Shown: positions 4,462 through 19,939, numbered from the stretch's first letter. The stretch is DNA of 27,793 nt from Flavitalea sp. (GCA_040007215.1 JBDTVL010000001.1:1-27793), one strand, 5' to 3'. Notes: generated by a model not told the origin, from the letters alone. Program-made: numbers and translations.

Positions 4462-7041
4462 TTATACTGAATTCCTTCCTGCGTTGATGATGCCGAAGGA
4501 GCTCCTGATCACCAGCTTCTCGTAGGTTTCCTTAAGTCCGTTAGCGGTTTTCTGTTCTTCAATATCCCTGATCTTTGAAAGCGCATATTGCTGAATGGTA
4601 GTAAGCGGAAGTACGATCTTCTCCCTCATATTGATAGAGATCTGTTCAACAGGGTAATCGGCCATCAGTTCAGTCTTCCCCGATAGCAGGCATAAATACC
4701 GCTCCGTCAGTTCATATTCCTGGTAGATCATATTGTATAGTCCGCCATATCTCGGATGGCGCGACAGGTATTCCGTTAATGGAAAGAAACATTTTTTCAT
4801 TGCCATTTCACAGTTATCCATAAGCGTTTTGAAGAACATGGAACGCTGGTAAAGATGTTTTACCGCCGCCCATTTACCTGTCTTTTCCAGGCGCTGCAGC
4901 GCAGTGCCAACGCCATAATAGCCGGTCACGTTTTGTTTTAGCTGGCTCCACGCGCCCACATAGGGGATAGCGCGAAGATCTTTTAAAGAAAACTTTGCCG
5001 AACTGCCGCGTTTGGAAGGGCGGCTGCCGATATTGGTCTCGCCATAAAACCTCAGGGGACTCACATGCGCCAGGTAATCGACAAAATCAGGATGATTTTT
5101 GAGTTCTATATAGGAGGTAAAACTTTCTTCCGCCAGTTCTTCCAGTAAAGTTTCTTCATCTTTTTCCAGGGTTACCGATTTTTTGGAGAACAATGCATTC
5201 GATATCCCGGCATTGATCAGTTGTTCAATATTGAATTGAGCCGAATCGATGGTGCCGAAATTAGAGCTTACGGTTTGTCCCTGTATCGTCAGTTGTATCT
5301 CTTCATTCGAAATATTTTTTCCCATCGATGCATAGAACTTATGTGTTTTGCCTCCGCCACGGGCCGGGGGCCCGCCTCTTCCGTCAAAGAAAACAACATC
5401 TACCTTAAACTCCCTGGATAATTGGGTAAGTTCTTCTTTTGCCTTATATATACTCCAGTTGGCCATGAAATAGCCTCCATCTTTGGTTCCGTCGGAGAAG
5501 CCAAGCATAATGGTCTGCCGTGTTTTGCGGTATTTAAGGTGCCGCATATATTCTTTATTGGCATACAGTTGTTTCATAATGCCGCCTGCATTGCGCAGAT
5601 CTTCCACCGTTTCAAAAAGAGGAATAATATCAATATTGATCTCATTCTTCTTCCATCCGCAAAGCAGGAACAGCCCGAATACTTCCAGCACATTTAGCGC
5701 GCTGTTGCACTGGCTGATGATATAACGGTTACATCCTTCAGGGCCGTTATACTGCTGTATATTCTGTATAGCCTTGATCGATTGGATCGTGTCGCTGATC
5801 ATGCTGTCTTCATAACCTTCATGCGGGATATCGTCCTGTACATGCGTCAGTAGTTCCATCTTTTTTTCGGCGTCGAGCGAAGCATAATCATTGGGTAGCG
5901 CCGCTTCTTTCATGGAAATAGCTTCCAGCGCTTTACTGTGCACCGTACTTTCCTGCCTGATATCCAACGAAGCAAAATGCAGTCCGAATACATGTACTTT
6001 ACTGATCAGGTTATCGACGAGGTGTTGAAAAAGACCATTGTGCTGGTAGGTGAGAATATCTCTTATCCTGAGCAGCGAATCCAGTATGCTTTCCCTGGTC
6101 AGCGCCGTTCGCTGACCAGGAATAAAGATGTTATTGTAGAGTTGTTTTTCAAGGTCGGCCAGTATGGTATCCACGCCTTTGAAAGTGAGTCGTCTTTTCA
6201 GTCGACGTACATCCAGGTAATAACATTTGATAATGCCTCCGCGTAAGGCATCAGCTACTTTAAGGGTGGTGTCTACGGTAACATTTGGATTGCCATCCCT
6301 GTCGCCTCCGGGCCAGAAACCCATATTGATAATGGGGTTGTCCTGTGTAAGCGCTTGTGGAAACTGGCTTTTGATAAAAGAGATGATCTTGCCTGCGGCG
6401 GAATAAAAAACATTTTCAAGGTACCAGCAAAGGCTCATTGCTTCATCGTAAGGGGTTGGTTTTTCCTTGTTCAGGAAAGGCGTTTTTCCCAACTGCTGCA
6501 GGTAGGTATTAATCTTGCCTGCATTGTTTTCCTGCAGGGCCCTGGAAAGGTCATTGATGATGCCAAGCACAGCGCCGGGGTAAAATTGGGTAGGGTGCGC
6601 CGTTAATACCAGTCTAATGGCAAAATTGTGTAGTTTTTCATAGAGTTCATCCTGCTTTGACTGCTGGATCACTTCCAGTTCGAGCTGTTTCAGCGAACCT
6701 ACGCCGCTCATATCATTGATATCGCGAAACGCAGCGTCTTCCAGGGCGTCAAACAGCACTACCTGCCTTTCAATAAACTGTATAAAGCGGAATAACAGGT
6801 CCAGTTTGTCCGACTCATTGATATAGGAAGTATGTTTTTGAAAAAATTCCTGGATGATCTGGTCGGGGCTTTGTTTCTTTTTATAACCTTCCTCACAATT
6901 GTTCAATAACAGCGATAACAGGATGCCTGTTTTTTCGATCCGGTGAAAAGGGAGAGAGGTAAACAGGCTGTTGTACAACTGGTACTTTAAGCCAACCGCA
7001 TTCTTAAATTGATGTAAACCTTTACTAGACTGGTGATCCAT
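4462..7041 (-). CDS. ppc: Phosphoenolpyruvate carboxylase
   Basis: VLTAHPTQ, GGDRDGNP, MLGFSDGTKDGG, FFDGRGGPPARGGG, TIQGQ, LRAIPYV and the C-terminal RNSV motif. Confidence 0.96.
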   Translation of the reverse strand: MDHQSSKGLHQFKNAVGLKYQLYNSLFTSLPFHRIEKTGILLSLLLNNCEEGYKKKQSPDQIIQEFFQKHTSYINESDKLDLLFRFIQFIERQVVLFDALEDAAFRDINDMSGVGSLKQLELEVIQQSKQDELYEKLHNFAIRLVLTAHPTQFYPGAVLGIINDLSRALQENNAGKINTYLQQLGKTPFLNKEKPTPYDEAMSLCWYLENVFYSAAGKIISFIKSQFPQALTQDNPIINMGFWPGGDRDGNPNVTVDTTLKVADALRGGIIKCYYLDVRRLKRRLTFKGVDTILADLEKQLYNNIFIPGQRTALTRESILDSLLRIRDILTYQHNGLFQHLVDNLISKVHVFGLHFASLDIRQESTVHSKALEAISMKEAALPNDYASLDAEKKMELLTHVQDDIPHEGYEDSMISDTIQSIKAIQNIQQYNGPEGCNRYIISQCNSALNVLEVFGLFLLCGWKKNEINIDIIPLFETVEDLRNAGGIMKQLYANKEYMRHLKYRKTRQTIMLGFSDGTKDGGYFMANWSIYKAKEELTQLSREFKVDVVFFDGRGGPPARGGGKTHKFYASMGKNISNEEIQLTIQGQTVSSNFGTIDSAQFNIEQLINAGISNALFSKKSVTLEKDEETLLEELAEESFTSYIELKNHPDFVDYLAHVSPLRFYGETNIGSRPSKRGSSAKFSLKDLRAIPYVGAWSQLKQNVTGYYGVGTALQRLEKTGKWAAVKHLYQRSMFFKTLMDNCEMAMKKCFFPLTEYLSRHPRYGGLYNMIYQEYELTERYLCLLSGKTELMADYPVEQISINMREKIVLPLTTIQQYALSKIRDIEEQKTANGLKETYEKLVIRSSFGIINAGRNSV

Positions 7042-7359: not shown

Positions 7360-9804
7360 ATGCAGGTTTTAAAGTTTGGCGGCACTTCTGTCGCCAATGC
7401 AGAGAATATCAATAAAGTAATCAGTATAGTAAAAAAGGCGGCGGAAAAGGACAGAACAATTCTGGTGGTTTCAGCATTTGGCGGCGTTACAGATAAACTG
7501 ATCGCCAGCGCCACGCTTGCCGCCGATGGCGACGAATCGTACAAGGAACATCTTTCCATTATAGAAAACAGGCATCTGACGGCTGTTCAGCAGCTCATCC
7601 CGGTATCGCGCCAGAGCAGCGTACTGAGCGCTGTAAAGAAGCAATGCAATGAAATAGAAGATATCTGCAATGGCATCTTCCTGTTGCGCGAACTGTCGCC
7701 CCGCACTAAAGACAGGGTGGTAAGTTTTGGCGAATTGTTATCCTCCCGCATTATATCGGCAAAATTTGTTGCCGATGGCATTGAGAATGAATGGAAGGAT
7801 TCGCGTGAGCTGATCCGGACCGATGGTCATTTCGGGAATGCAAAAGTTGATTTTGACATCAGCAATCGCCAGATCAGCGATTTTTTTAACGGCTCCTCCC
7901 AGAACCTTTTTGTGCTTCCGGGTTTTATCTCTTCCGGTCCCGGTAATGCAATCACAACGCTGGGACGCGGCGGTTCTGATTATACGGCAGCGATTGTAGC
8001 GGCGGCGCTGGAAGCCGGTTCGCTGGAAATATGGACCGATGTATCGGGTATCATGACAGCCGACCCCAGCCATGTTATAAATGCAAGAGTAATTCCGCAT
8101 ATTTCTTACCAGGAAGCTATGGAGCTTTCTCATTTTGGCGCCAAAGTGATCTACCCGCCCACTATACAGCCCGTACTGAAAAAGAATATCCCTGTCTGGG
8201 TGAAAAATACTTTCGCGCCTTCCGATGAAGGCACGCTAATAGATAATACCGTATCAAGAAACGGAAATATCATCCGCGGTATTTCCAGTATTAATAAAAT
8301 TGCGCTTCTCGGCCTGGAAGGCGGCGGCATGGTAGGTATTCCCGGCTTCTCCAAGCGATTGTTTGAAGCGCTTGCCAATGATAAGATCAATGTGATCATG
8401 ATCACCCAGGGTTCTTCCGAGCATTCTATCTGCGTTGGCGTTGATGAAGCTGAAGCGGAAAGAGCCAGGGAATCTGTCGATAAGGCTTTCAGCCAGGAAA
8501 TAACGGCCGGCCAGGTAGATCCGCTGATTGTGGAAACGCGTCTTTCCGTAGTGGCTCTGGTGGGCGATAATATGAAAAATCATCCGGGTATCAGCGGTAA
8601 GATGTTTGGCGCGCTGGGCAGGAATGGCATTAATGTAAGGGCTATTGCCCAGGGTTCTTCCGAAAGAAATATCTCTGCGGTCATTTACCAGTCGGACGTT
8701 AAAAAGGCCGTGAATGTATTACACGAAGAGTTTTTTGAAACAACCTTTAAGCAGGTCAATCTATTCATTACGGGAGTAGGTAATGTGGGTAGCCGCCTGA
8801 TCGGACAGTTGCTGCAGCAGAAAAAATACCTGGAAGATCAACTGCGCTTACAGGTAAGGGTGGTAGGGATGGCCAACAGCAAGAAAATGCTGTTCAACGA
8901 TGATGGTATTAATCTGCTGACCTGGAAAGAGGACCTCGAAAAGGGCAGCGCTATGAACCTGCAGGAATTCCTGAAGATCGTTCCCTCGCGCAACCTCCGC
9001 AATTCTCTTTTTGCAGATGTTACCGCCAATGCAGAAGTGGCTGCTTCCTACGATAAATTGTTGTCGAAAAGCGTATCTATTGTGGCCTGCAATAAAGTAG
9101 CCTGCTCTTCATCCTATCAATATTACAAGAGTCTTAAAGAACTGTCGAGAGAGTATAATGTGTCTTTTTTGTTTGAAACAAATGTGGGCGCAGGGCTACC
9201 GGTTATAGGTACCCTGAACGATCTTTTACGCAGCGGCGACAAGGTGAATAAGATCCAGGCCGTATTAAGCGGAACGCTGAACTTTGTATTCAACAATTAC
9301 GACGGTAAAACAAGTTTTGCAGAAGTGGTGAGGCAGGCGCAGGAAGAAGGCTATACCGAACCTGATCCAAGGCTCGACCTCAGCGGAACAGATGTAATGC
9401 GCAAGATCATGATCCTGGCCCGGGAAGCCGGCGAACAGATCGAGATGGCTGATATTTCCAATGAAACCTTCATGCCTGCATCGTGCATGACCGGCGATGT
9501 GGAGAATTTTTATAAGGAAATGGCTAAAGAAGAAGCGCATTTTAAAAAGTTGTATAAAAAAGCGGCAGATGCTGGAACAAAGCTGAAATTCGTGGCCATT
9601 TATGAAAATGGTAAAGCGGCGGTAGGTTTGCAGCAGATCGATCCGCAACACGATTTTTATCATCTCTATGGCAAGGATAACGTAGTGTTGTTTTACACCG
9701 ACAGGTATAATGATCAGCCCCTTGTAATAAAAGGAGCGGGAGCAGGAGCGGAAGTAACGGCATCCGGCGTATTTGCCGATATTATCAGGGCCTCACGTTT
9801 ATAG
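7360..9804 (+). CDS. thrA: Bifunctional aspartate kinase / homoserine dehydrogenase I
   Basis: N-terminal KFGGTS, LGRGGSDYTAA, WTDVSGIMTADP, two ACT regions, then GVGNVG, FETNVGAGLP, GYTEPDPRLDLSG and GAGAGAEVTASGV. Confidence 0.96.
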   Translation: MQVLKFGGTSVANAENINKVISIVKKAAEKDRTILVVSAFGGVTDKLIASATLAADGDESYKEHLSIIENRHLTAVQQLIPVSRQSSVLSAVKKQCNEIEDICNGIFLLRELSPRTKDRVVSFGELLSSRIISAKFVADGIENEWKDSRELIRTDGHFGNAKVDFDISNRQISDFFNGSSQNLFVLPGFISSGPGNAITTLGRGGSDYTAAIVAAALEAGSLEIWTDVSGIMTADPSHVINARVIPHISYQEAMELSHFGAKVIYPPTIQPVLKKNIPVWVKNTFAPSDEGTLIDNTVSRNGNIIRGISSINKIALLGLEGGGMVGIPGFSKRLFEALANDKINVIMITQGSSEHSICVGVDEAEAERARESVDKAFSQEITAGQVDPLIVETRLSVVALVGDNMKNHPGISGKMFGALGRNGINVRAIAQGSSERNISAVIYQSDVKKAVNVLHEEFFETTFKQVNLFITGVGNVGSRLIGQLLQQKKYLEDQLRLQVRVVGMANSKKMLFNDDGINLLTWKEDLEKGSAMNLQEFLKIVPSRNLRNSLFADVTANAEVAASYDKLLSKSVSIVACNKVACSSSYQYYKSLKELSREYNVSFLFETNVGAGLPVIGTLNDLLRSGDKVNKIQAVLSGTLNFVFNNYDGKTSFAEVVRQAQEEGYTEPDPRLDLSGTDVMRKIMILAREAGEQIEMADISNETFMPASCMTGDVENFYKEMAKEEAHFKKLYKKAADAGTKLKFVAIYENGKAAVGLQQIDPQHDFYHLYGKDNVVLFYTDRYNDQPLVIKGAGAGAEVTASGVFADIIRASRL

Positions 9805-9889
9805 ATAAACGAATATCGCGTTCCTGGCTGAACGAAGAAAATAAAAAGAAAAAGGACCGGTATAATGGCGGGTTATAAAAAATAAATGG

Positions 9890-10825
9890 ATGAAAACAGT
9901 AAGCATTTTAGCCCCGGCATCAGTAGCTAATCTCGTATGCGGTTTTGATGTGCTGGGTATGGCGCTTGCCGATCCGGCAGATGAAATGACGATAAGTTTG
10001 ACTAAAGAGCCTGGTATTATTATCCATCACGAAGACCAATACGGACTGCCGGTTGCCCCGGAAAAGAATGTGGCCGGAGTAGCGCTGATGGCCCTGGTAA
10101 AGGAAATGAAAGAGGAGGTTGGTTTTGTGTTAACTGTGAATAAGCTGATCAAACCTGGCAGCGGCCTGGGTTCCAGCGCTGCCAGTTCGGCCGGCGCCGT
10201 TGCTGGGGCTAATGCATTGATCGATAATTATTTTTCCAAAGAAGACCTGGTGCGTTTTGCGATGGTCGGTGAAAAGCTGGCCTCGGGCGTTAAACATGCC
10301 GATAATATAGCTCCCTGTCTCTATGGAGGAGTAACTCTTGTTCGGTCTATATTACCGCTTGATATTATAAAATTATCTTTCCCCCCATTATATGTAACAG
10401 TGGTGCATCCGCAGATAGAAGTGAAAACCTCCGATGCGCGGCAGATCCTGCGCAACCAGGTGGCTTTGAAAGATGCCATCAGACAATGGGGTAATATTGC
10501 CGGATTGGTAGCGGGGTTCCTGCAAAAAGATTATGAACTGATCGGTCGTTCTCTCGAAGATGTGATCATAGAGCCGGTAAGAAGCATACTGATACCCGGT
10601 TTTAAAGAATTGAAATCGGGATGTATTGAAGCCGGCGCGCTGGGGGGCGGTATTTCCGGATCAGGACCTTCTGTATTCATGCTTAGTATTGAAGAGCGCA
10701 CAGCCCGCAATGTGGAAACAGTGATGAAAGACATTTACAGCCGACTGGGTATTGAATTCAAAACTTACGTAACAAAAATCTGCGATAAAGGAGTCAGGGT
10801 ACATGAAATATTACAGCACCAATAA
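9890..10825 (+). CDS. thrB: Homoserine kinase
   Basis: PASVANLVCGFD, GHMP-kinase loop PGSGLGSSAAS, HADNIAP and ISGSGPS. Confidence 0.95.
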   Translation: MKTVSILAPASVANLVCGFDVLGMALADPADEMTISLTKEPGIIIHHEDQYGLPVAPEKNVAGVALMALVKEMKEEVGFVLTVNKLIKPGSGLGSSAASSAGAVAGANALIDNYFSKEDLVRFAMVGEKLASGVKHADNIAPCLYGGVTLVRSILPLDIIKLSFPPLYVTVVHPQIEVKTSDARQILRNQVALKDAIRQWGNIAGLVAGFLQKDYELIGRSLEDVIIEPVRSILIPGFKELKSGCIEAGALGGGISGSGPSVFMLSIEERTARNVETVMKDIYSRLGIEFKTYVTKICDKGVRVHEILQHQ

Positions 10826-12122
10826 ACAATCGCCGGTAGTCGATTTTAAAGAAGCCACGATAAGAGGACAAGCCCCTGATAAGGGTTTATATTTTCCTGA
10901 GCGCATCCCTAAACTACCGCCTTCTTTTTTTACCAATATCAATACGCTTGCCAGACACGAGATAGCGATGCAGGTGATCGCACCTTATGTGGGTGACACT
11001 ATTCCTGAAAATGAATTGCAGCGTATCGTTGCTGAAACAGTCAATTTTGATTTCCCCCTGGTAAATGTGGAAGGGAATATCTTTTCTCTGGAACTTTTTC
11101 ATGGTCCCACGCTTGCTTTCAAAGATGTTGGCGCAAGATTTATGAGCCGTTGCCTGGGTTATTTTTCAAAGGAAAGGACTGATCGTATAATAGTGCTGGT
11201 AGCCACTTCCGGCGATACCGGCGGCGCCGTCGCCAACGGATTCTATGGCGTTGAAGGCATTGATGTTGTGATTTTATACCCTTCAGGGAAGGTTAGCTCC
11301 GTTCAGGAAAAACAACTCACTACCCTGGGAAGAAATATTCATGCGCTGGAAGTTGACGGATCATTTGATGATTGTCAGAAAATGGTGAAGGAGGCTTTTA
11401 CCGACTCCGATCTCAATGCCCGTTTATTTCTTACTTCAGCCAATTCCATTAATGTGGCGCGATGGCTCCCACAACAGTTTTATTATTTCTTTGCCTGGCA
11501 ACAACTAATGCGCGACCAGGGAAACCAGCAGCAGATCAAGCCGGTTATTTCAGTGCCCAGCGGTAATTTTGGCAATATTTGCGCAGGCCTTGTAGCTTAT
11601 CGTTCAGGCCTGCCCGTTGATCATTTTATTGCCGCCTGTAATGCCAATGATGTGGTTCCTGAATATTTTCTCCATGGTAACTACCAGCCCCAGCCGGCAA
11701 AATCAACAATATCCAATGCTATGGATGTTGGCGACCCCAGTAATTTTATCAGGATGCTGGAACTATTCGATCATAAGTATGGCGACCTCCGCGCCCTGAT
11801 CAGCAGCTACAGTATTACCGACGATGAAACCAGGCAAACTATCAGGAACGTATATACCCAGTTTAATTACCTGCCCGATCCTCATGGAGCGGTGGCCTAT
11901 GCCGCCCTTAAGAAATATCTTGTTGAAAATCCTTCGCAGGCAGGGAAAAGTATTTTCCTGGAAACTGCACATCCTATTAAGTTCTATGATGTAGTAGAGC
12001 CGGTGATCAACCAAACAGCGCCTATGCCATCATCGATCAAAGAGATCATGCATAAGGAAAAGAAGAGCCTTAAAATAAATAAGAAATTTGAGGAACTGAA
12101 GGAATACCTGTTGAGTAAGTAG
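10803..12122 (+). CDS. thrC: Threonine synthase
   Basis: ELFHGPTLAFKD (PLP lysine), ATSGDTG, SANSIN, VPSGNFGN, DPHGAV and ETAHP. Overlaps the thrB end by 23 nt. Confidence 0.96.
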   Translation: MKYYSTNKQSPVVDFKEATIRGQAPDKGLYFPERIPKLPPSFFTNINTLARHEIAMQVIAPYVGDTIPENELQRIVAETVNFDFPLVNVEGNIFSLELFHGPTLAFKDVGARFMSRCLGYFSKERTDRIIVLVATSGDTGGAVANGFYGVEGIDVVILYPSGKVSSVQEKQLTTLGRNIHALEVDGSFDDCQKMVKEAFTDSDLNARLFLTSANSINVARWLPQQFYYFFAWQQLMRDQGNQQQIKPVISVPSGNFGNICAGLVAYRSGLPVDHFIAACNANDVVPEYFLHGNYQPQPAKSTISNAMDVGDPSNFIRMLELFDHKYGDLRALISSYSITDDETRQTIRNVYTQFNYLPDPHGAVAYAALKKYLVENPSQAGKSIFLETAHPIKFYDVVEPVINQTAPMPSSIKEIMHKEKKSLKINKKFEELKEYLLSK

Positions 12123-12221: not shown

Positions 12222-13478
12222 CTAGATGATGCCGGCCAGTTCAAGACTTTTTTTCTTCAGCTTTCTGAGTTCGACATCTTCTATAACAGGCTCGGGCATT
12301 AGTATAAGGGAAACGTTATTTTCTCTCCACCATGTTTTATTAAGCAGCTCCCTAAAGTGCAGGACGCCTACCAGGTATTTCCTGTCTTCCATGGCATGCC
12401 ATTCCTCGATCCATTCAAAACGTTCTTTTGGAATATATTTAAGATCGTCAAAACTCAGGTAGGCTTTTACATAAAAATCATGCGTAAGCTCATGCGGTTT
12501 GTGGTGGTAAAGTTTTTTATACTCATAGCGGTACTGGTAACGTAAAGCAGAGATATCGCTGAGCACTGCGGAGGCGGTAGGAAAACTTCCGGCGCCTTTT
12601 CCATAGAAGAATTGTTTATCGGAAAAACCGCTTTCTATCACTACTCCGTTATATTCATTTCTAACAAACGCCAGAGGATCATCCTGCTTTACAAATTGCG
12701 GCAATACGAAAGCCGCTACTTTTCCATTTAGCAGTTTCTGCGCCTGCGCAACTAATTTGATCTGATAGTTTTTTTCCTTGGCAACTAATGCATCGCCCGA
12801 TTGTATATTCTGAATACCTGTAAATACGATGTTGCCCGGGTTGTCGAGAATGCCATAAGCATGGGTAAGCAGAAATGTCCATTTGTTGACTGCGTCAAAA
12901 CCTTCTACATCCAGTTTGGGGTTGCTTTCTGCGAAGCCTAATTGCTGCGCCAGTATAAGCGCCTGTTTGAAGTCGAGCTTTTCTTCAAACATCTTGGTGA
13001 GGATGAAATTCGTAGAGCCATTAACGATAGCTTTCATGGAATGAAGAAGATCGTTATCGTAATATTCTTCCAGGTTGCGGATAACCGGTATGGAAGCGCA
13101 GGCTGCGGCTTCATATAAAAAAGGTTCTCCGGTGGTTTGCTGCAGCTCCAGTAATTCGGATAAATGTTCCGCGATCATCTTTTTATTGGCGCTCACGACC
13201 GATTTGCCATTCCTTAATGCGGTTGACACAATATGGAATGCGGCTTCAGAATCGTCAATCACTTCTACGATAACATTGATGTCCTCATCCATCAGCAGAT
13301 CATCTTTTTCGGTAGTGAATAAGGCGTCTGGCGCATTTCTCTGCTTCCCCGGATTTTTGATGCATATCTTTTTTATAGTAGCATTCAGGGATGCGGTTTG
13401 GTGCAGTACCTTATATAATCCTTCGCCTACAACACCGAATCCGAATAAACCAATGGTCAATTGTTTGTGCGTATCCAT
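12222..13478 (-). CDS. hom: Monofunctional homoserine dehydrogenase of the met operon
   Basis: GLFGFGVVG, VSANKK, YEAAACASIP, NGSTNFIL, AQQLGFAESNP and GKGAGSFPTASAV. Confidence 0.92.
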   Translation of the reverse strand: MDTHKQLTIGLFGFGVVGEGLYKVLHQTASLNATIKKICIKNPGKQRNAPDALFTTEKDDLLMDEDINVIVEVIDDSEAAFHIVSTALRNGKSVVSANKKMIAEHLSELLELQQTTGEPFLYEAAACASIPVIRNLEEYYDNDLLHSMKAIVNGSTNFILTKMFEEKLDFKQALILAQQLGFAESNPKLDVEGFDAVNKWTFLLTHAYGILDNPGNIVFTGIQNIQSGDALVAKEKNYQIKLVAQAQKLLNGKVAAFVLPQFVKQDDPLAFVRNEYNGVVIESGFSDKQFFYGKGAGSFPTASAVLSDISALRYQYRYEYKKLYHHKPHELTHDFYVKAYLSFDDLKYIPKERFEWIEEWHAMEDRKYLVGVLHFRELLNKTWWRENNVSLILMPEPVIEDVELRKLKKKSLELAGII

Positions 13479-13480
13479 AA

Positions 13481-14530
13481 TTAATGTGCGGTTTCTCTTT
13501 TTTTTGCGTTAAAGGAATCCCTTTCTATAAAATTAAGGATATGATGACTGATCTGTTCAAATTCCAGTAAAAATCCATCATGTCCATAAGGAGAGTTGAT
13601 CGGCTTAAAGGCAGCCCCAGGTATATTCTCCGCTATAAACTGCTGTTCGTGAGCAGGAAAAAGCAGGTCGGTTGTTATGCCTATGGCTAGTGTTTTCGCC
13701 TTGATGGATCCAAGTGCGTTGATCACTCCGTTTCTTCCTCTGCCCACATTATGGGCATCCATCGATTTACTTAGCGCATAATAACTGAAAGCATTAAATC
13801 GCCTGGCCAGTTTTTCACCTTGGTAACGCTGATAAGATTCACTGTTAAAATTTTCTAATTTATGATCATCCGTTTCGGATTGCCCCGACTGGTAGGTTTC
13901 ATAACTCCGGTAAGAGATCAGCGCAATGCTCCGGGCCACTTTCATTCCCTCAATGCCTGCGCTTTCCTTATTTTCTTTCCAGCCCGGATCGGCTTCAATA
14001 CATAATCGTTGAGAAGCATTAAAGGCTCTTCCCCATGGCGAATGAAGTGCATTGGTAGCGATCGGAAAAATATAACTGAACAGATCAGGCTCTGTGATGG
14101 CCCATTCCAGCAATTGTTGTCCGCCCATAGAACCTCCTATGCCTATATGAATTTTTCTTATGCCCATCAGTTCTTTCAAAGGATGATAAGCGCGGATCAT
14201 ATCGCGGGTGGTAAAGAACGGGAAGCTATGGTAATAGGGCTGATCGGTTTTCGGATTGATTTCCAAAGGACCAATACTTCCATAACAGCTCCCGGGCATG
14301 TTAACGCAAATAATAAACCAGGCAGAAGGATCAAATAATTTCCCTTCACCCACGAGGCCGGGCCACCATTCTGCGGCATCGCTGTTGGCGGTGAGCGCAT
14401 GAAAGATCCATACTGTATTGTCGCCTTTTTCATTCAGGCGGCCATAGGTAGTGTAGCCAATATGATACCCTGGCAAAATATGGCCGGATTCGAGCGTGAA
14501 GGGATGATGGTGTTCAAAAATCTTTGGCAT
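13481..14530 (-). CDS. metX: Homoserine O-acyltransferase, alpha/beta-hydrolase MetX family (acetyl versus succinyl donor not determined)
   Basis: HALTAN, GSCYGSIGP, nucleophile motif GGSMGG, TDLLFP and GHDGFL. Confidence 0.93.
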   Translation of the reverse strand: MPKIFEHHHPFTLESGHILPGYHIGYTTYGRLNEKGDNTVWIFHALTANSDAAEWWPGLVGEGKLFDPSAWFIICVNMPGSCYGSIGPLEINPKTDQPYYHSFPFFTTRDMIRAYHPLKELMGIRKIHIGIGGSMGGQQLLEWAITEPDLFSYIFPIATNALHSPWGRAFNASQRLCIEADPGWKENKESAGIEGMKVARSIALISYRSYETYQSGQSETDDHKLENFNSESYQRYQGEKLARRFNAFSYYALSKSMDAHNVGRGRNGVINALGSIKAKTLAIGITTDLLFPAHEQQFIAENIPGAAFKPINSPYGHDGFLLEFEQISHHILNFIERDSFNAKKRETAH

Positions 14531-14531
14531 A

Positions 14532-15872
<1,341 letters not shown>

Positions 15873-16135: not shown

Positions 16136-16570
16136 TTACATCCTGACTTCCCATTCATCTTCAATAAGTTGCCAGTCATTGAAGGCCTCTTTCCCGCCTC
16201 TGGCCTTCCAGTCAGAATCAATGGTCAGCTTTGAACTGATACCTCCACGGGGGTTGCAGATCATGACAAGTCTTAATCTTTCGGGCGCGTAAATCGCAGC
16301 GATATCATCATAAATAATATTGATAAGCCTCTCATACGACACTACGATATTCCTGAGCTGGAAAATGTACTGCTTTAATGATTTCAGCTCTATGATTTTG
16401 TCTTTGGGATAAAATACCAGGTAAATAACTGCAAAATCAGGTTGCTCCTTCACGCCCAGGAAGGTGAATTCAGGAATCTTTGTTTTGATTTCATACGCCT
16501 GCTGCGTAGGATTTGGAATGGCTTTTAAAATATTCCTGTCTATATTCTTATAGGTAAGTGTCTCTTTCAT
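16136..16570 (-). CDS. QueF-family (T-fold) protein lacking the catalytic cysteine; function unknown
   Basis: PEFTFLGVKEQPDFA aligns with QueF PEFTSLCPKTGQPDFA, but Gly replaces the Cys. It also has the QueF motif IELKSLKQY, SYE (versus FHE) and NPRGGIS. Confidence 0.85.
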   Translation of the reverse strand: MKETLTYKNIDRNILKAIPNPTQQAYEIKTKIPEFTFLGVKEQPDFAVIYLVFYPKDKIIELKSLKQYIFQLRNIVVSYERLINIIYDDIAAIYAPERLRLVMICNPRGGISSKLTIDSDWKARGGKEAFNDWQLIEDEWEVRM

Positions 16571-16704: not shown

Positions 16705-16736
16705 AAAAAAGCTCTTCTGATAGTCAGAAGAGCTTT
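16705..16736 (-). terminator. Intrinsic terminator of the SAM-I riboswitch expression platform
   Basis: Minus strand reads AAAGCTCTTCTGA-CTA-TCAGAAGAGCTTTTTT: a perfect 13-bp stem with a 3-nt loop, and a U6 run whose first three U's close the stem. Confidence 0.9.
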
Positions 16737-16790
16737 ACTATTTTGACGGATGCAGAATGCAAACGTTTGGAGTATAAGGCTTTGATCTGA

Positions 16791-16902
16791 CTTATCTATC
16801 CCAATTAATCCATTGGGATGGAGTTGGCACCTTATTCTGAATGAACAGAACAGGTTGTCAAGGCTTCGCAGGGCCATTTCCCTCAGCCTTTCTTGATAAG
16901 AG
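16791..16902 (-). ncRNA. SAM-I (S-box) riboswitch aptamer
   Basis: Minus strand reads CTCTTATCAAGAAAGGCTGAGGGAAATGGCCCTGCGAAGCCTTGACAACC...AAGGTGCCAACTCC ATCCCAAT-GGATTA-ATTGGGAT AGATAAG. This gives P1 CTTATC/GATAAG, a P2 kink-turn element GAGGG..GGCCC..GAAGCC, P3 ACAACC/GGTGC and a P4 hairpin. Confidence 0.93.
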
Positions 16903-16919
16903 ATGTTTAAGAACTGATG

Positions 16920-16927
16920 CAAATATA
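16920..16927 (-). promoter_or_regulatory. -7 promoter element TATATTTG driving the riboswitch transcript
   Basis: Exact TAnnTTTG match about 18 nt upstream of the aptamer. Confidence 0.7.
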
Positions 16928-17001
16928 GAGCGGCCTTTAAATATTTCAAAATATTGTCTATGGTATAACAAATTCACGTGTTCTAAACCTCTGTTTGTTC
17001 G

Positions 17002-17009
17002 TAAATTTG
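17002..17009 (+). promoter_or_regulatory. -7 promoter element TAAATTTG for uvrA
   Basis: Exact TAnnTTTG match 17 nt before the ATG at 17027. Confidence 0.6.
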
Positions 17010-17026
17010 ATGTTCTTCAATTTATT

Positions 17027-19939
17027 ATGGCAAAATCAAAGGAAAAGGCAGCTTCACATAAAGTGGCCGGAGTAAAGGTTTCAGAAAAAAGCGCAATGCC
17101 CGCTGATCCGGTTCAGGAATATATAGAAGTATTTGGCGCAAGGGAACATAACCTGAAGAATATTGATATCCGTATTCCAAAAAATAAGCTGGTCGTTTTT
17201 ACCGGCGTCAGCGGCAGCGGAAAATCATCGCTGGCTTTCGATACGATCTACAATGAAGGTCAGCGCAGGTATATGGAAAGTTTCTCGGCTTATGCGCGTC
17301 AGTTTATTGGCGATATGGAAAGGCCCGACGTAGACAAGATCACAGGTCTGTCGCCGGTTATTTCTATTGAACAGAAAACGACCAACCGGAACCCGCGTTC
17401 TACTGTGGGAACGATCACTGAAGTATACGATTTCCTGCGTTTATTATATGCGCGCATAGGCGAAGCGTATAGTTACAACACCGGTAAGAAAATGGTGAAG
17501 TTCAGCGAGGAAGAAATTGTTCAGAATATATTTCAGAAGTTTAAAGGAAAGAATATCACCTTGCTGGCGCCGCTGGTGAGAGGCCGTAAAGGTCATTACC
17601 GCGAGCTTTTTGAAGATGTACGGAAAAAAGGATACCTGAAAGTAAGGATAGACGGAGAAGTGAAAGACCTGGTAGCCAAAATGCAGGTGGACCGTTATAA
17701 GATCCATGATATAGAAGTAGTGATTGACCGGCTGCCGGTAAAGGATGAAATGAAAGTAAGGCTGAGCCAGAGCGTGCAGAAAACTTTGCAAACCGGTAAG
17801 GACCTGATGTTCCTGTCGGTTATTGATCCCGATAAGGTGACGCAGTACAGTAAGGAACTGATGTGCGAGGATACCGGAATCAGTTATGAAGAACCTTCTC
17901 CCAATTCTTTCTCTTTTAATTCACCCTACGGAGCCTGCCCTGTGTGTAAAGGGCTTGGAGATATTTACCAGATAGATTTAAATGCGGTTATACCAGATCG
18001 TGAGCTGAGTATTAATGAAGGCGCTTTTGCGCCTTTGGGAGAAGCGAGAGAAGCTTTTGTATTCAGGCAGGTACAGCAACTGGCTAAGAAACATAGAATA
18101 GATCTTAATAAGGCGGTGAAGGATCTTCCGGAAAAAGCCATGAACCTTTTACTTTATGGAAATGAAAATGGCGCCGGCGATAACGAAGTAGAATTTAAGG
18201 ATGTACAGGCAAATGTTCAGGGTTACCTGGAAGAATACGAGGGTATCGTTCCTCAATTGAATCGATGGTTTGCAGGCGGTACCAGCGAAGCGGTGCGCGA
18301 ATGGGTGGAACAATTCATGGAACTCAAAACCTGCCCTGAATGCAAGGGCGCCAGGCTCAGGAAAGAAAGTCTGTGGTTTAAAGTAGATGGAAGAAATATT
18401 TCTGAATTAAGCGGCATGAACCTCGACAAAATGATGGTGTGGCTCGAAGGACTGGAGCAACGGTTAACCGATAAGCGGCAAATCATTGCCAAAGATGTGC
18501 TGAAGGAGATACGTGAAAGACTGCAGTTCCTGCTGGATGTTGGACTGAATTATCTTTCCCTGAACAGGTCGGCAAGAACCCTTAGCGGCGGCGAGTCGCA
18601 GCGTATCAGGCTTGCCACCCAGATAGGTTCACAGTTGCAGGGCATCACTTATATACTGGATGAACCCAGCATCGGGCTTCATTCAAGAGATAACCAAAGG
18701 CTCATTGATGCGCTGAAACATCTTCGCAATATTGGCAATAGCGTACTGGTAGTGGAACATGATAAAGATATTATGCTGGCTGCCGATTACCTGATAGATA
18801 TTGGTCCCCGCGCAGGAAAACATGGCGGAGAGATCGTTGCCCAGGGCGATCCTAAAACCATCTATGCTTCACAATCGGAAACTTCCAGGTTTTTGTTTGG
18901 CGAAAAAATGATCGCGGTTCCAAAGGAAAGAAGAAAGGGGAACGGAAAAGCGCTGGAGTTAAAAGGGGCCAATGGTAATAATCTTCACTCGCTGCAGGTT
19001 AAATTTCCACTGGGTAAACTGATCGTGGTAACAGGCGTTAGCGGAAGCGGAAAATCTACGCTGATCAATGAAACCCTGTATCCGATCTTAAGCGCGCATG
19101 CCTATAATTCAAGGACAACTCCTCTGGAATACAAATCGATAAAAGGACTTGAATTCATCGATAAGGTAATAGAGATGGACCAGTCGCCCATAGGAAGAAC
19201 GCCGAGAAGTAATCCGGCTACCTATTGCGGTTTTTTTACCGATATAAGAACGCTGTTTGCTATGGTTCCTGAAGCCAAGATCAGGGGATATACGCCGGGA
19301 CGTTTTTCCTTCAACGTGAAAAGTGGCCGGTGTGAAGTTTGCGAAGGCGGCGGTATGCGGGTAATTGAGATGAACTTCCTTCCCGATGTATATGTGAATT
19401 GTGAAAAATGCAACGGCAAAAGATATAACCGCGAAACGCTCGAGATCCGCTACAAGGGAAAATCGATCAGCGATGTATTAAATATGACAGTTGATGAAGC
19501 GGTCGATTTTTTTTCGGCAGTGCCATTTATCTTTCGTAAGATAAAAGTGCTGCAGGAAGTTGGACTGGGCTATATCACCTTAGGACAATCAGCCGTGACC
19601 TTAAGCGGCGGAGAAGCGCAGCGCGTAAAGCTGTCCACCGAACTGGGAAAAAAAGACACCGGTAAAACCTTTTATATTCTCGACGAGCCTACCACAGGAT
19701 TACATTTCCTGGATATCATTCATTTACTGAATGTATTGAATAAGCTGGTGGACAGAGGCAATACGGTGCTGGTCATCGAACATAATCTGGATGTGATTAA
19801 AGTGGCGGACCATATTATCGACCTGGGCCCCGAAGGTGGCGATGGAGGAGGAAGAATATTGTTTGAAGGAGTTCCGGAAGATATGGAACAGGCGCCGGAA
19901 AGTCATACGGCCAGGTTTTTAAAAGCGGAGCTATTATGA
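17027..19939 (+). CDS. uvrA: Excinuclease ABC subunit A
   Basis: GAREHNLKNI, two Walker A motifs (GVSGSGKS), two LSGGE signatures and CxxC zinc fingers. The start is placed at ATG 17027 (MAKSKEK); the ORF-track extension from 16841 is antisense to the riboswitch. Confidence 0.97.
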   Translation: MAKSKEKAASHKVAGVKVSEKSAMPADPVQEYIEVFGAREHNLKNIDIRIPKNKLVVFTGVSGSGKSSLAFDTIYNEGQRRYMESFSAYARQFIGDMERPDVDKITGLSPVISIEQKTTNRNPRSTVGTITEVYDFLRLLYARIGEAYSYNTGKKMVKFSEEEIVQNIFQKFKGKNITLLAPLVRGRKGHYRELFEDVRKKGYLKVRIDGEVKDLVAKMQVDRYKIHDIEVVIDRLPVKDEMKVRLSQSVQKTLQTGKDLMFLSVIDPDKVTQYSKELMCEDTGISYEEPSPNSFSFNSPYGACPVCKGLGDIYQIDLNAVIPDRELSINEGAFAPLGEAREAFVFRQVQQLAKKHRIDLNKAVKDLPEKAMNLLLYGNENGAGDNEVEFKDVQANVQGYLEEYEGIVPQLNRWFAGGTSEAVREWVEQFMELKTCPECKGARLRKESLWFKVDGRNISELSGMNLDKMMVWLEGLEQRLTDKRQIIAKDVLKEIRERLQFLLDVGLNYLSLNRSARTLSGGESQRIRLATQIGSQLQGITYILDEPSIGLHSRDNQRLIDALKHLRNIGNSVLVVEHDKDIMLAADYLIDIGPRAGKHGGEIVAQGDPKTIYASQSETSRFLFGEKMIAVPKERRKGNGKALELKGANGNNLHSLQVKFPLGKLIVVTGVSGSGKSTLINETLYPILSAHAYNSRTTPLEYKSIKGLEFIDKVIEMDQSPIGRTPRSNPATYCGFFTDIRTLFAMVPEAKIRGYTPGRFSFNVKSGRCEVCEGGGMRVIEMNFLPDVYVNCEKCNGKRYNRETLEIRYKGKSISDVLNMTVDEAVDFFSAVPFIFRKIKVLQEVGLGYITLGQSAVTLSGGEAQRVKLSTELGKKDTGKTFYILDEPTTGLHFLDIIHLLNVLNKLVDRGNTVLVIEHNLDVIKVADHIIDLGPEGGDGGGRILFEGVPEDMEQAPESHTARFLKAELL

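Follow-up and report, generated by a model that had tools for sequence, protein, structure and literature searches.

The window analysed here, a stretch of 27,793 nucleotides from Flavitalea sp. (GCA_040007215.1, JBDTVL010000001.1:1-27793), contains on its minus strand a gene for a small protein of the QueF family, P0001, in which the catalytic cysteine of these T-fold enzymes is absent (Table 1). The gene is preceded by a SAM-I riboswitch aptamer, matched over the full length of the Rfam model and far above its gathering score, and by a terminator-like hairpin with a T-run; both features by which a SAM-I element is recognized, the RF00162 match and the downstream terminator, are therefore present, and the hairpin is likely the expression platform of the riboswitch. 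Downstream follow metY, metX and hom on the same strand, of which metX is best matched by MetX models but at scores under their curated equivalog cut-offs. As the terminator scan predicted no terminator in the 281-nt gap between the QueF-like gene and metY, read-through and co-transcription into the methionine genes would be expected. Given this order of riboswitch, hairpin, gene, terminator-free gap and metY-metX-hom, the QueF-like gene comes first among the cistrons controlled by SAM and heads the homocysteine branch.

Several further features of the surroundings were observed. The longest reading frame of uvrA overlaps the riboswitch on the opposite strand; its first 62 residues look spurious and the likely start is a Met at about 17027 (MAKSKEK...). 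An operon of thrA (aspartate kinase/homoserine dehydrogenase I), thrB and thrC runs convergently to the met operon, so that together with hom the window encodes two homoserine dehydrogenases, and a PEP carboxylase-like gene lies upstream. The methionine synthase MetH of the same genome is encoded in split form on another contig, with 16 nt between the gene for a homocysteine module of 338 aa and that for a pterin/B12/activation module of 902 aa, and a search of this contig against Rfam returned no riboswitch.

Table 1. Features of the window and two metH loci discussed in the text (X, QueF-like gene; strand as given for the window)
Feature	Position	Strand	Evidence or remark
SAM-I riboswitch aptamer (S-box leader), upstream of the QueF-like gene	16789..16902	-	Rfam RF00162, 79.9 bits (gathering score 44.4), E 1.5e-17, full model 1-108
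Terminator-like hairpin (13 pairs) and T-run, between aptamer and start codon	16698..16736	-	Terminator scan; stem 16736..16708, then TTTTGTTGTT
Gene for Cys-less QueF-family T-fold protein, 144 aa (P0001)	16136..16570	-	ORF, Pfam/NCBIfam match, AF2 model
metY, O-acetylhomoserine sulfhydrylase (homocysteine synthase)	14532..15854	-	TIGR01326, 678.8 bits
metX, homoserine O-acetyltransferase	13481..14530	-	TIGR01392, 337 bits (cut-off 500), E 1e-100; NF001209, 304 bits (cut-off 331)
hom, homoserine dehydrogenase	12222..13478	-	NF004976, 307.6 bits
uvrA, longest frame	16841-19939	+	
thrA-thrB-thrC operon	7360-12122	+	
PEP carboxylase-like gene	4462-7041	-	Best match under equivalog cut-off
Split metH of the window's genome	L179 (G000 contig C85), 3682-4698 and 4715-7423		Adjacent, without QueF-like gene between
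Viral cassette metK - X - full-length 1178-aa metH - ahcY	L146:4944-11232 (IMGVR_UViG_3300020442_000005, 273 kb)		Tightly packed

The QueF-like protein and its clade

P0001 has QueF (PF14489, 1e-17) as its sole Pfam match, without a TIM-barrel MTHFR domain, and its score for the NCBIfam preQ1 synthase model TIGR03139 (89.9 bits) barely exceeds the cut-off of 86.9. HMMER aligns residues 13-113 with Bacillus subtilis QueF (4f8b/4fgc/5udg; E about 1e-16) and sets PEFTFLGVKE-QPDFA opposite PEFTSLCPKTGQPDFA, the core FTFLGVKE-QPDF standing opposite FTSLCPKTGQPDF. An earlier note, made from the sequence alone, had proposed that the thioimide-forming cysteine is replaced by glycine in a loop one residue shorter, and the alignment confirms this, with Gly39 at the position of B. 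subtilis Cys55. The other details listed there are correct as well: P0001 retains Asp45 (B. subtilis Asp62), the E61-L-K-S-L-K66 sequence of the QueF motif, which is the NADPH motif, and P107-R-G-G110; it has Ser78-Tyr79-Glu80 where B. subtilis QueF has Phe95-His96-Glu97, so that the anchoring Glu is kept; Cys105 is its sole cysteine; and it ends in a Trp-rich C-terminal tail.

QueF has been defined by Cys55, Asp62, Glu97 and the QueF motif with Glu78, all of them required, and in the same 2017 census sequences short of any defining residue were set aside as "non-QueF" (Mohammad et al., 2017; PMC5372742). Measured against this definition, the counterparts of Asp62 and Glu97 and E61-LKSL-K66 are aligned and invariant, and the thioimide cysteine is a glycine that is itself invariant in the clade of P0001. 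Among 22 Cys-less clade members, which are just 33-68% identical to P0001, E34, F37, G39, Q43-P44-D45, E61, S64, K66, S78-Y79-E80 and R108-G-G do not vary, and the conserved Cys-less motif is therefore no chance effect. Neither Cys105 nor any other cysteine is conserved across these 22 aligned members, so that Cys105 cannot stand in as the nucleophile in the family at large. Gly-type and Cys-type clades alike show no variation in the NADPH motif, the Glu and the Asp. In pairwise comparison of P0001 with five orthologs dN was 0.11-0.26, with synonymous sites saturated.

The AF2 model of P0001 (pLDDT 89.6) has chains of B. subtilis QueF (4fgc/4f8b) as best PDB matches in Foldseek, with TM 0.76-0.78, followed by bimodular QueF, QueF-L and GTP cyclohydrolase I, and by model and matches P0001 is a unimodular T-fold protein. 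With unimodular QueF (YkvM type, EC 1.7.1.13, PDB 4F8B/4FGC) it has the fold (TM 0.77, 32% identity), the length class, the E(S/L)K(S/A)hK motif, the Asp, the Glu and the PRGG loop in common, whereas P0001 differs in the Gly, the shorter loop and the Ser-Tyr named above, in the lack of the back-door Cys99, in the tail, in its separate clade and in an association with met, metH and SAM-cycle genes instead of the preQ0 pathway. QueF-L, the archaeosine synthase of Crenarchaeota (PDB 5JYX), is likewise a T-fold QueF homolog with different chemistry; it keeps its thioimide Cys21, and its co-substrate is ammonia in place of NADPH (PMC5485725), while P0001 shows the reverse, the cysteine being gone and the NADPH motif kept, and does not qualify as a QueF-L. 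GTP cyclohydrolase I (FolE), a T-fold relative which binds a guanine/pterin ring, is matched at TM about 0.65; P0001 has no FolE match in Pfam or NCBIfam, and with a single, unconserved cysteine the FolE-type Cys/His/Cys zinc site is absent.

About 2,700 proteins match P0001 in a 90%-clustered database, and among the best 120 of these, which are 76-88% identical, named sources carry the label "preQ(1) synthase" or "7-cyano-7-deazaguanine reductase", the kind of misannotation that the earlier note had expected. In 15 homologs from Chitinophagaceae, the family of the window's genome going by the source names of its closest homologs, PEFTFLGV-(K/Q)-(E/K)-QPDFA is otherwise invariant. A 50%-clustered library yielded 197 representatives at <= 1e-10 with two kinds of motif, a Gly type (E-x-T-F-x-G-x3-QPD(F/Y) with S-Y-E-R) and a Cys type (E-F-T-x-x-C-P-x-T-G-QPDF with (F/I)-(H/Y)-E), and in a maximum-likelihood tree a single branch (UFboot/SH-aLRT 97/92) divides 42 Cys-less from 26 Cys-bearing sequences. 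Judged by alignment and tree, P0001 is a member of a large, conserved, monophyletic and old Cys-less sister clade of unimodular QueF and no decayed paralog. The two types also separate in a scan of one genome per species, which yielded 80 loci: the 41 with at least 53% identity are Gly type without exception, and among the 39 at 48% or below the Cys type was read in 36, with three unreadable by pattern. Gly-type genes occur in many families of Bacteroidota, in Syntrophorhabdus, the gammaproteobacterium Pleionea and Myxococcota, in one Dehalococcoidia and one Parcubacteria genome and in many phages, and family members are 65-75% identical across phyla and phages. A search for fused forms returned just fusions with Lar-like, M19 peptidase and FliM domains, in single records each, which may be gene-calling artefacts. 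No published description of the Cys-less clade was found in the literature on QueF with methionine synthase or T-fold, on flavin-independent MTHFR, and on 7-cyano-7-deazaguanine reductase with riboswitch or metH.

Gene neighbourhoods and the distribution of MetF

In other Chitinophagaceae the QueF-like gene likewise lies inside met operons with SAM-I riboswitches, at varying positions (metB/Y-X-hom or metB-metY-metX-X-hom). Elsewhere it is found with a split metH: in 15 of the 41 Cys-less genome loci the gene stands between a 335-aa homocysteine-binding MetH module and an approximately 890-aa pterin/B12/activation module, all on one strand with ends touching or overlapping, and a SAM-I riboswitch opens 10 of the 10 tested loci of this kind. 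Pleionea has the gene divergent from an unsplit metH, and Syntrophorhabdus directly after thyX. For about half of the genome loci the neighbours are not informative, being transporters, argG/argH, ADH and others in no recurrent pattern, and the contigs of three distant representatives (P0122, P0124, P0129) are too short for a neighbourhood to be read.

Relatives were found on 65 viral contigs, nearly all readable ones being of the Gly type, and the phage copies lie near genes for DNA replication and nucleotide metabolism. Often metK or ahcY is the immediate neighbour, as in five viral loci besides L146. In L146, a 273-kb record, the gene is part of a cassette with metK, full-length metH and ahcY, so that a phage here carries almost the whole methyl cycle; no match to the MTHFR domain (PF02219) was found in the record. 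As a separate observation, at least 10 viral contigs (L117, L119-L122, L124, L126, L131, L132, L166) have the QueF-like gene followed, directly or nearly so, by one for a DUF2452 protein (PF10504) of about 140 aa.

Methionine synthase takes its methyl group from 5-methyl-THF, and the distribution of its canonical source, MetF, sets many carriers of the Cys-less gene apart. MetH is present in 29 of 38 carrier genomes; PF02219 is found in 16 of the 38, and even with E <= 0.01 as threshold there is no match in the other 22, of which 19 have MetH. The MetF-less carriers include genomes whose loci sit on chromosome-scale records. Among 71 genomes of Cyclobacteriaceae, MetF was present in 0 of 6 carriers and 63 of 65 non-carriers (Fisher p 2e-7), and among 49 genomes of one Myxococcota family in 0 of 27 carriers and 18 of 22 non-carriers (Fisher p 6e-10), values which overstate independence, since those genomes of a family that carry the gene may belong to a single clade. 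All 33 QueF-family matches in the two samples are Gly type. Within Cyclobacteriaceae the operons can be arranged as a series: non-carriers (L215, L216) have riboswitch-metHN-metHC-metF, three carrier operons (L042, L049, L064) hold both genes as riboswitch-metHN-X-metHC-metF, and in L035 and others the operon reads riboswitch-metHN-X-metHC and metF is gone from the genome. This is the pattern expected of a non-orthologous displacement of MetF.

The window's own family presents a different picture. MetF replacement within Chitinophagaceae was considered and is rejected, as 59 of 60 genomes, every carrier among them, have PF02219, and there is consequently no pathway hole to fill in this family. 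Four near-complete Chitinophagaceae carriers have MetF, FolA, FolD and split MetH; the window's MAG, which is 62% complete, has MetF, FolA and split MetH, and FolD is without an above-cut-off match. Two other replacements were likewise examined. FolA is missing in 13 of the 38 carriers and kept in all Bacteroidota carriers; it is also absent from 4 of 5 Myxococcota relatives without the QueF-like protein, which indicates that its loss tracks lineage, not the gene. A replacement of DHFR is therefore unsupported, and one of FolD is rejected by the presence of FolD in near-complete carriers.

A further prediction, that genomes with neither MetF nor the QueF-like protein would lack MetH, failed: MetH was present in all seven genomes tested (G118, G137, G173, G178, G183, G187 and G032), which have no clear MetF, G032 being a complete single-contig genome with a PF02219 match of just 20 bits. 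An absent PF02219 match is thus no proof of absent MTHFR activity, and a third route to methyl-THF, a very divergent MTHFR or assembly gaps may account for these genomes. In the 0.8-Mb Parcubacteria carrier no MetH or pterin-binding protein was found, leaving no evident user of methyl-THF. For those members of the Myxococcota family sampled above (that of G092) that have MetF, the MTHFR domain scores weakly (E about 1e-30) and is part of an open frame of about 620-1000 aa, which suggests fused or unusual forms of MTHFR.

Proposed function and competing explanations

The earlier note had considered that the protein may bind NADPH and a purine-like ring and perform different chemistry, which is plausible from sequence and model. 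Going further, we propose that P0001 and its relatives act as a flavin-free, NADPH-dependent 5,10-methylene-THF reductase, a functional analogue of MetF which supplies 5-methyl-THF to MetH, a reading to which we give a somewhat better than even chance. Since the family takes the place of MetF in many bacteria and some phages, it would probably be a new kind of methylenetetrahydrofolate reductase, and with the gene behind a SAM-I riboswitch its product would be made at low SAM, P0001 being synthesized together with or just ahead of the products of metY-metX-hom. In the window's genome, where canonical MetF is kept as in other Chitinophagaceae, the protein would be a second, SAM-repressed isozyme beside MetF; for P0001 itself the MetF argument is transferred from orthologs about 70% identical.

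The proposed chemistry is close to that of QueF, whose second half-reaction uses NADPH to reduce the exocyclic C=N that a 2-amino-4-oxo-pyrimidine bicycle bears on C7. Glu80 would anchor the 2-amino-4-oxo-pyrimidine face of the pterin, as its counterpart does with preQ0; Asp45 would serve as general acid and open the methylene bridge to the 5-iminium ion; and NADPH at the retained ELKSLK/Arg108 site would give its hydride to the carbon on N5. In idealised ring geometry the carbon on pterin N5 would come to lie, by estimate, about 0.7 A from the site of the C7 nitrile carbon of preQ0, which itself would be about 1.9 A from pterin C6. By this closeness the 5-iminium form of methylene-THF would be the natural folate counterpart. 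An iminium ion, unlike a nitrile, is already activated and needs no covalent adduct, which would make the cysteine dispensable, while uses would remain for the anchoring Glu, for the Asp as general acid and for the NADPH motif, in agreement with what is conserved. The Trp/Arg-rich tail might, as a speculation, hold the pABA-glutamate part.

Flavin-free transfer of a hydride from NAD(P)H to methylene-THF has a precedent in the mycobacterial Mfr (MSMEG_6596/6649, Rv2172c), where the hydride passes straight from NADH to methylene-H4F in a ternary complex, an acidic residue forms the 5-iminium and a carboxylate contacts the pterin in bidentate fashion (PMC11094777). Mfr is a monomeric TIM barrel thought to be derived from MTHFR, whereas P0001 is a T-fold protein and presumably oligomeric. 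From MetF/MTHFR (PF02219), with which it would have the reaction and the metabolic place in common, and which shares SAM-riboswitch metH operons with it and in two families is mutually exclusive with it, P0001 differs by a T-fold against an FAD-dependent TIM barrel, by 144 aa against about 300 aa and by the lack of a flavin site; by its sequence it would be an analogue of MetF in function and not a family member.

To our knowledge, methylene-THF reduction has so far been described only for TIM-barrel enzymes (MTHFR, Mfr, Mer). If the proposal is true, the committed step by which one-carbon units enter the methyl cycle is performed by a T-fold protein of 144 residues, and a covalent nitrile reductase has become an iminium reductase by loss of its nucleophile. 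MetF-less, MetH-containing Cyclobacteriaceae, Crocinitomicaceae, Saprospiraceae, Myxococcota and others would be accounted for, and in phages the gene would have an auxiliary role, completing the methyl cycle of a viral metK-metH-ahcY set. The label "preQ(1) synthase", which wrongly implies queuosine synthesis, would be corrected in hundreds of annotations, and metabolic reconstructions would change with respect to methionine prototrophy and to salvage versus synthesis of queuosine. A bolder extension, which we regard as improbable, would make the family a fourth class of MTHFR, a structurally unrelated T-fold one, which has taken over from MetF in several bacterial lineages and is carried about in the methyl-cycle cassettes of phages, and which in its boldest form takes 5,10-methenyl-THF via methylene-THF to 5-methyl-THF with two NADPH by the two-step, four-electron logic of QueF, bypassing both the FolD dehydrogenase step and MetF.

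The first alternative to be weighed is that the NADPH-dependent reductase acts on some other folate or pterin species, with reduction of methenyl-THF to methylene-THF as by FolD, of DHF to THF, or repair of an oxidised methyl-folate, which would feed both MetH and ThyX. Motifs and fold suit it as well as they suit a methylene-THF reductase, and the position right after thyX in Syntrophorhabdus, the company of replication and nucleotide genes in phages and the lack of FolA in a third of the carriers point in this direction; yet the FolA gaps follow lineage, FolA is retained in all Bacteroidota carriers and FolD in the near-complete Chitinophagaceae ones, and neither the mutual exclusion with MetF nor its replacement within operons is explained, so that we consider this alternative unlikely. 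The split-metH loci invite another explanation, in which the protein is a non-catalytic pterin- or folate-binding partner of MetH, a carrier or scaffold of the split enzyme, and the old pocket residues are kept for binding only. Such a role would fit the 15 loci where the gene sits, with overlapping or nearly overlapping ends, between metH-N and metH-C, as well as the very high conservation across phyla and phages. Unsplit MetH, however, accompanies the protein in L039 and L146, and the gene is also found far from metH, as in the window's genome with its adjacent metH-N and metH-C; the absence of MetF from carriers is left unexplained, and the invariant NADPH motif argues for catalysis. We therefore think a mere partner role distinctly unlikely. 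A complex prediction of P0001 with its own MetH-N and the pterin-binding part of MetH-C gave a score of 0.00 and carries no weight either way.

Queuosine genes and the question of preQ0 reduction

In the window's genome no second QueF-family gene was found, the MAG being 62% complete, and this is also the outcome of the check for a second, Cys-containing queF that the earlier note had asked for. Among 61 Chitinophagaceae genomes six have an above-cut-off QueF-family match, five of them Gly type and one a canonical bimodular QueF, and in four Gly-type relatives, each 99% complete, no Cys-bearing queF was found. The designation of the gene as a QueF paralog in the earlier note therefore does not hold, the protein belonging to an old, separate clade. 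A true QueC was missing from G000, the window's genome, and from G003, G009, G046 and G055, with partial matches of 30 bits or less only; the four 99%-complete carriers have Tgt and no real QueC. QueC (TIGR00364) is missing in 31 of the 38 carriers from many phyla. Of the seven that have it, three hold a separate second QueF-family gene, two of these being bimodular going by length, and the other four, all Syntrophorhabdus, are without a second QueF-family gene. At no locus examined was a linkage to queuosine genes seen.

These data bear on two further explanations. Binding or conversion of a 7-deazaguanine- or guanine-type ligand unrelated to folate, e.g., in salvage or sensing of preQ0/preQ1, would make use of the retained preQ0-pocket residues Glu80, Glu61 and Asp45, and the near-complete Chitinophagaceae carriers, which have Tgt, must salvage a queuosine precursor; against it, the loci link to met, metH, metK, ahcY and SAM riboswitches and none to queuosine genes, and Phe95/His96 of the preQ0 pocket are Ser/Tyr throughout the clade, which reduces this explanation to a slim chance. 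That P0001 is still a preQ0 reductase, with another nucleophile or a non-covalent mechanism, appears very unlikely from its sequence, and the gene is almost certainly not queF: apart from the score above the NCBIfam preQ1 synthase cut-off and the four Syntrophorhabdus carriers, which have QueC without a Cys-bearing QueF, the evidence points the other way, with C55A and C55S QueF being inactive (PMC13740343), the other cysteines unconserved in the clade, QueC missing from most carriers including those in Chitinophagaceae, and a second QueF-family gene, bimodular by length in two of the three, in the remaining QueC-positive carriers.

The conclusion of the earlier note that the protein is no standard preQ0 reductase is borne out by the absent cysteine, the inactive mutants and the lack of queC in near-complete relatives and in the 31 carriers, and its reading stands overall; what it had missed is the decisive setting, with a SAM-I riboswitch and a met operon around the gene and ties to folate, MetH and MetF. 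As a minor observation, in the four Syntrophorhabdus genomes with QueC and without a Cys-bearing QueF (G063, G064, G066 and G067) an unannotated 134-aa ORF lies beside the Cys-less gene.
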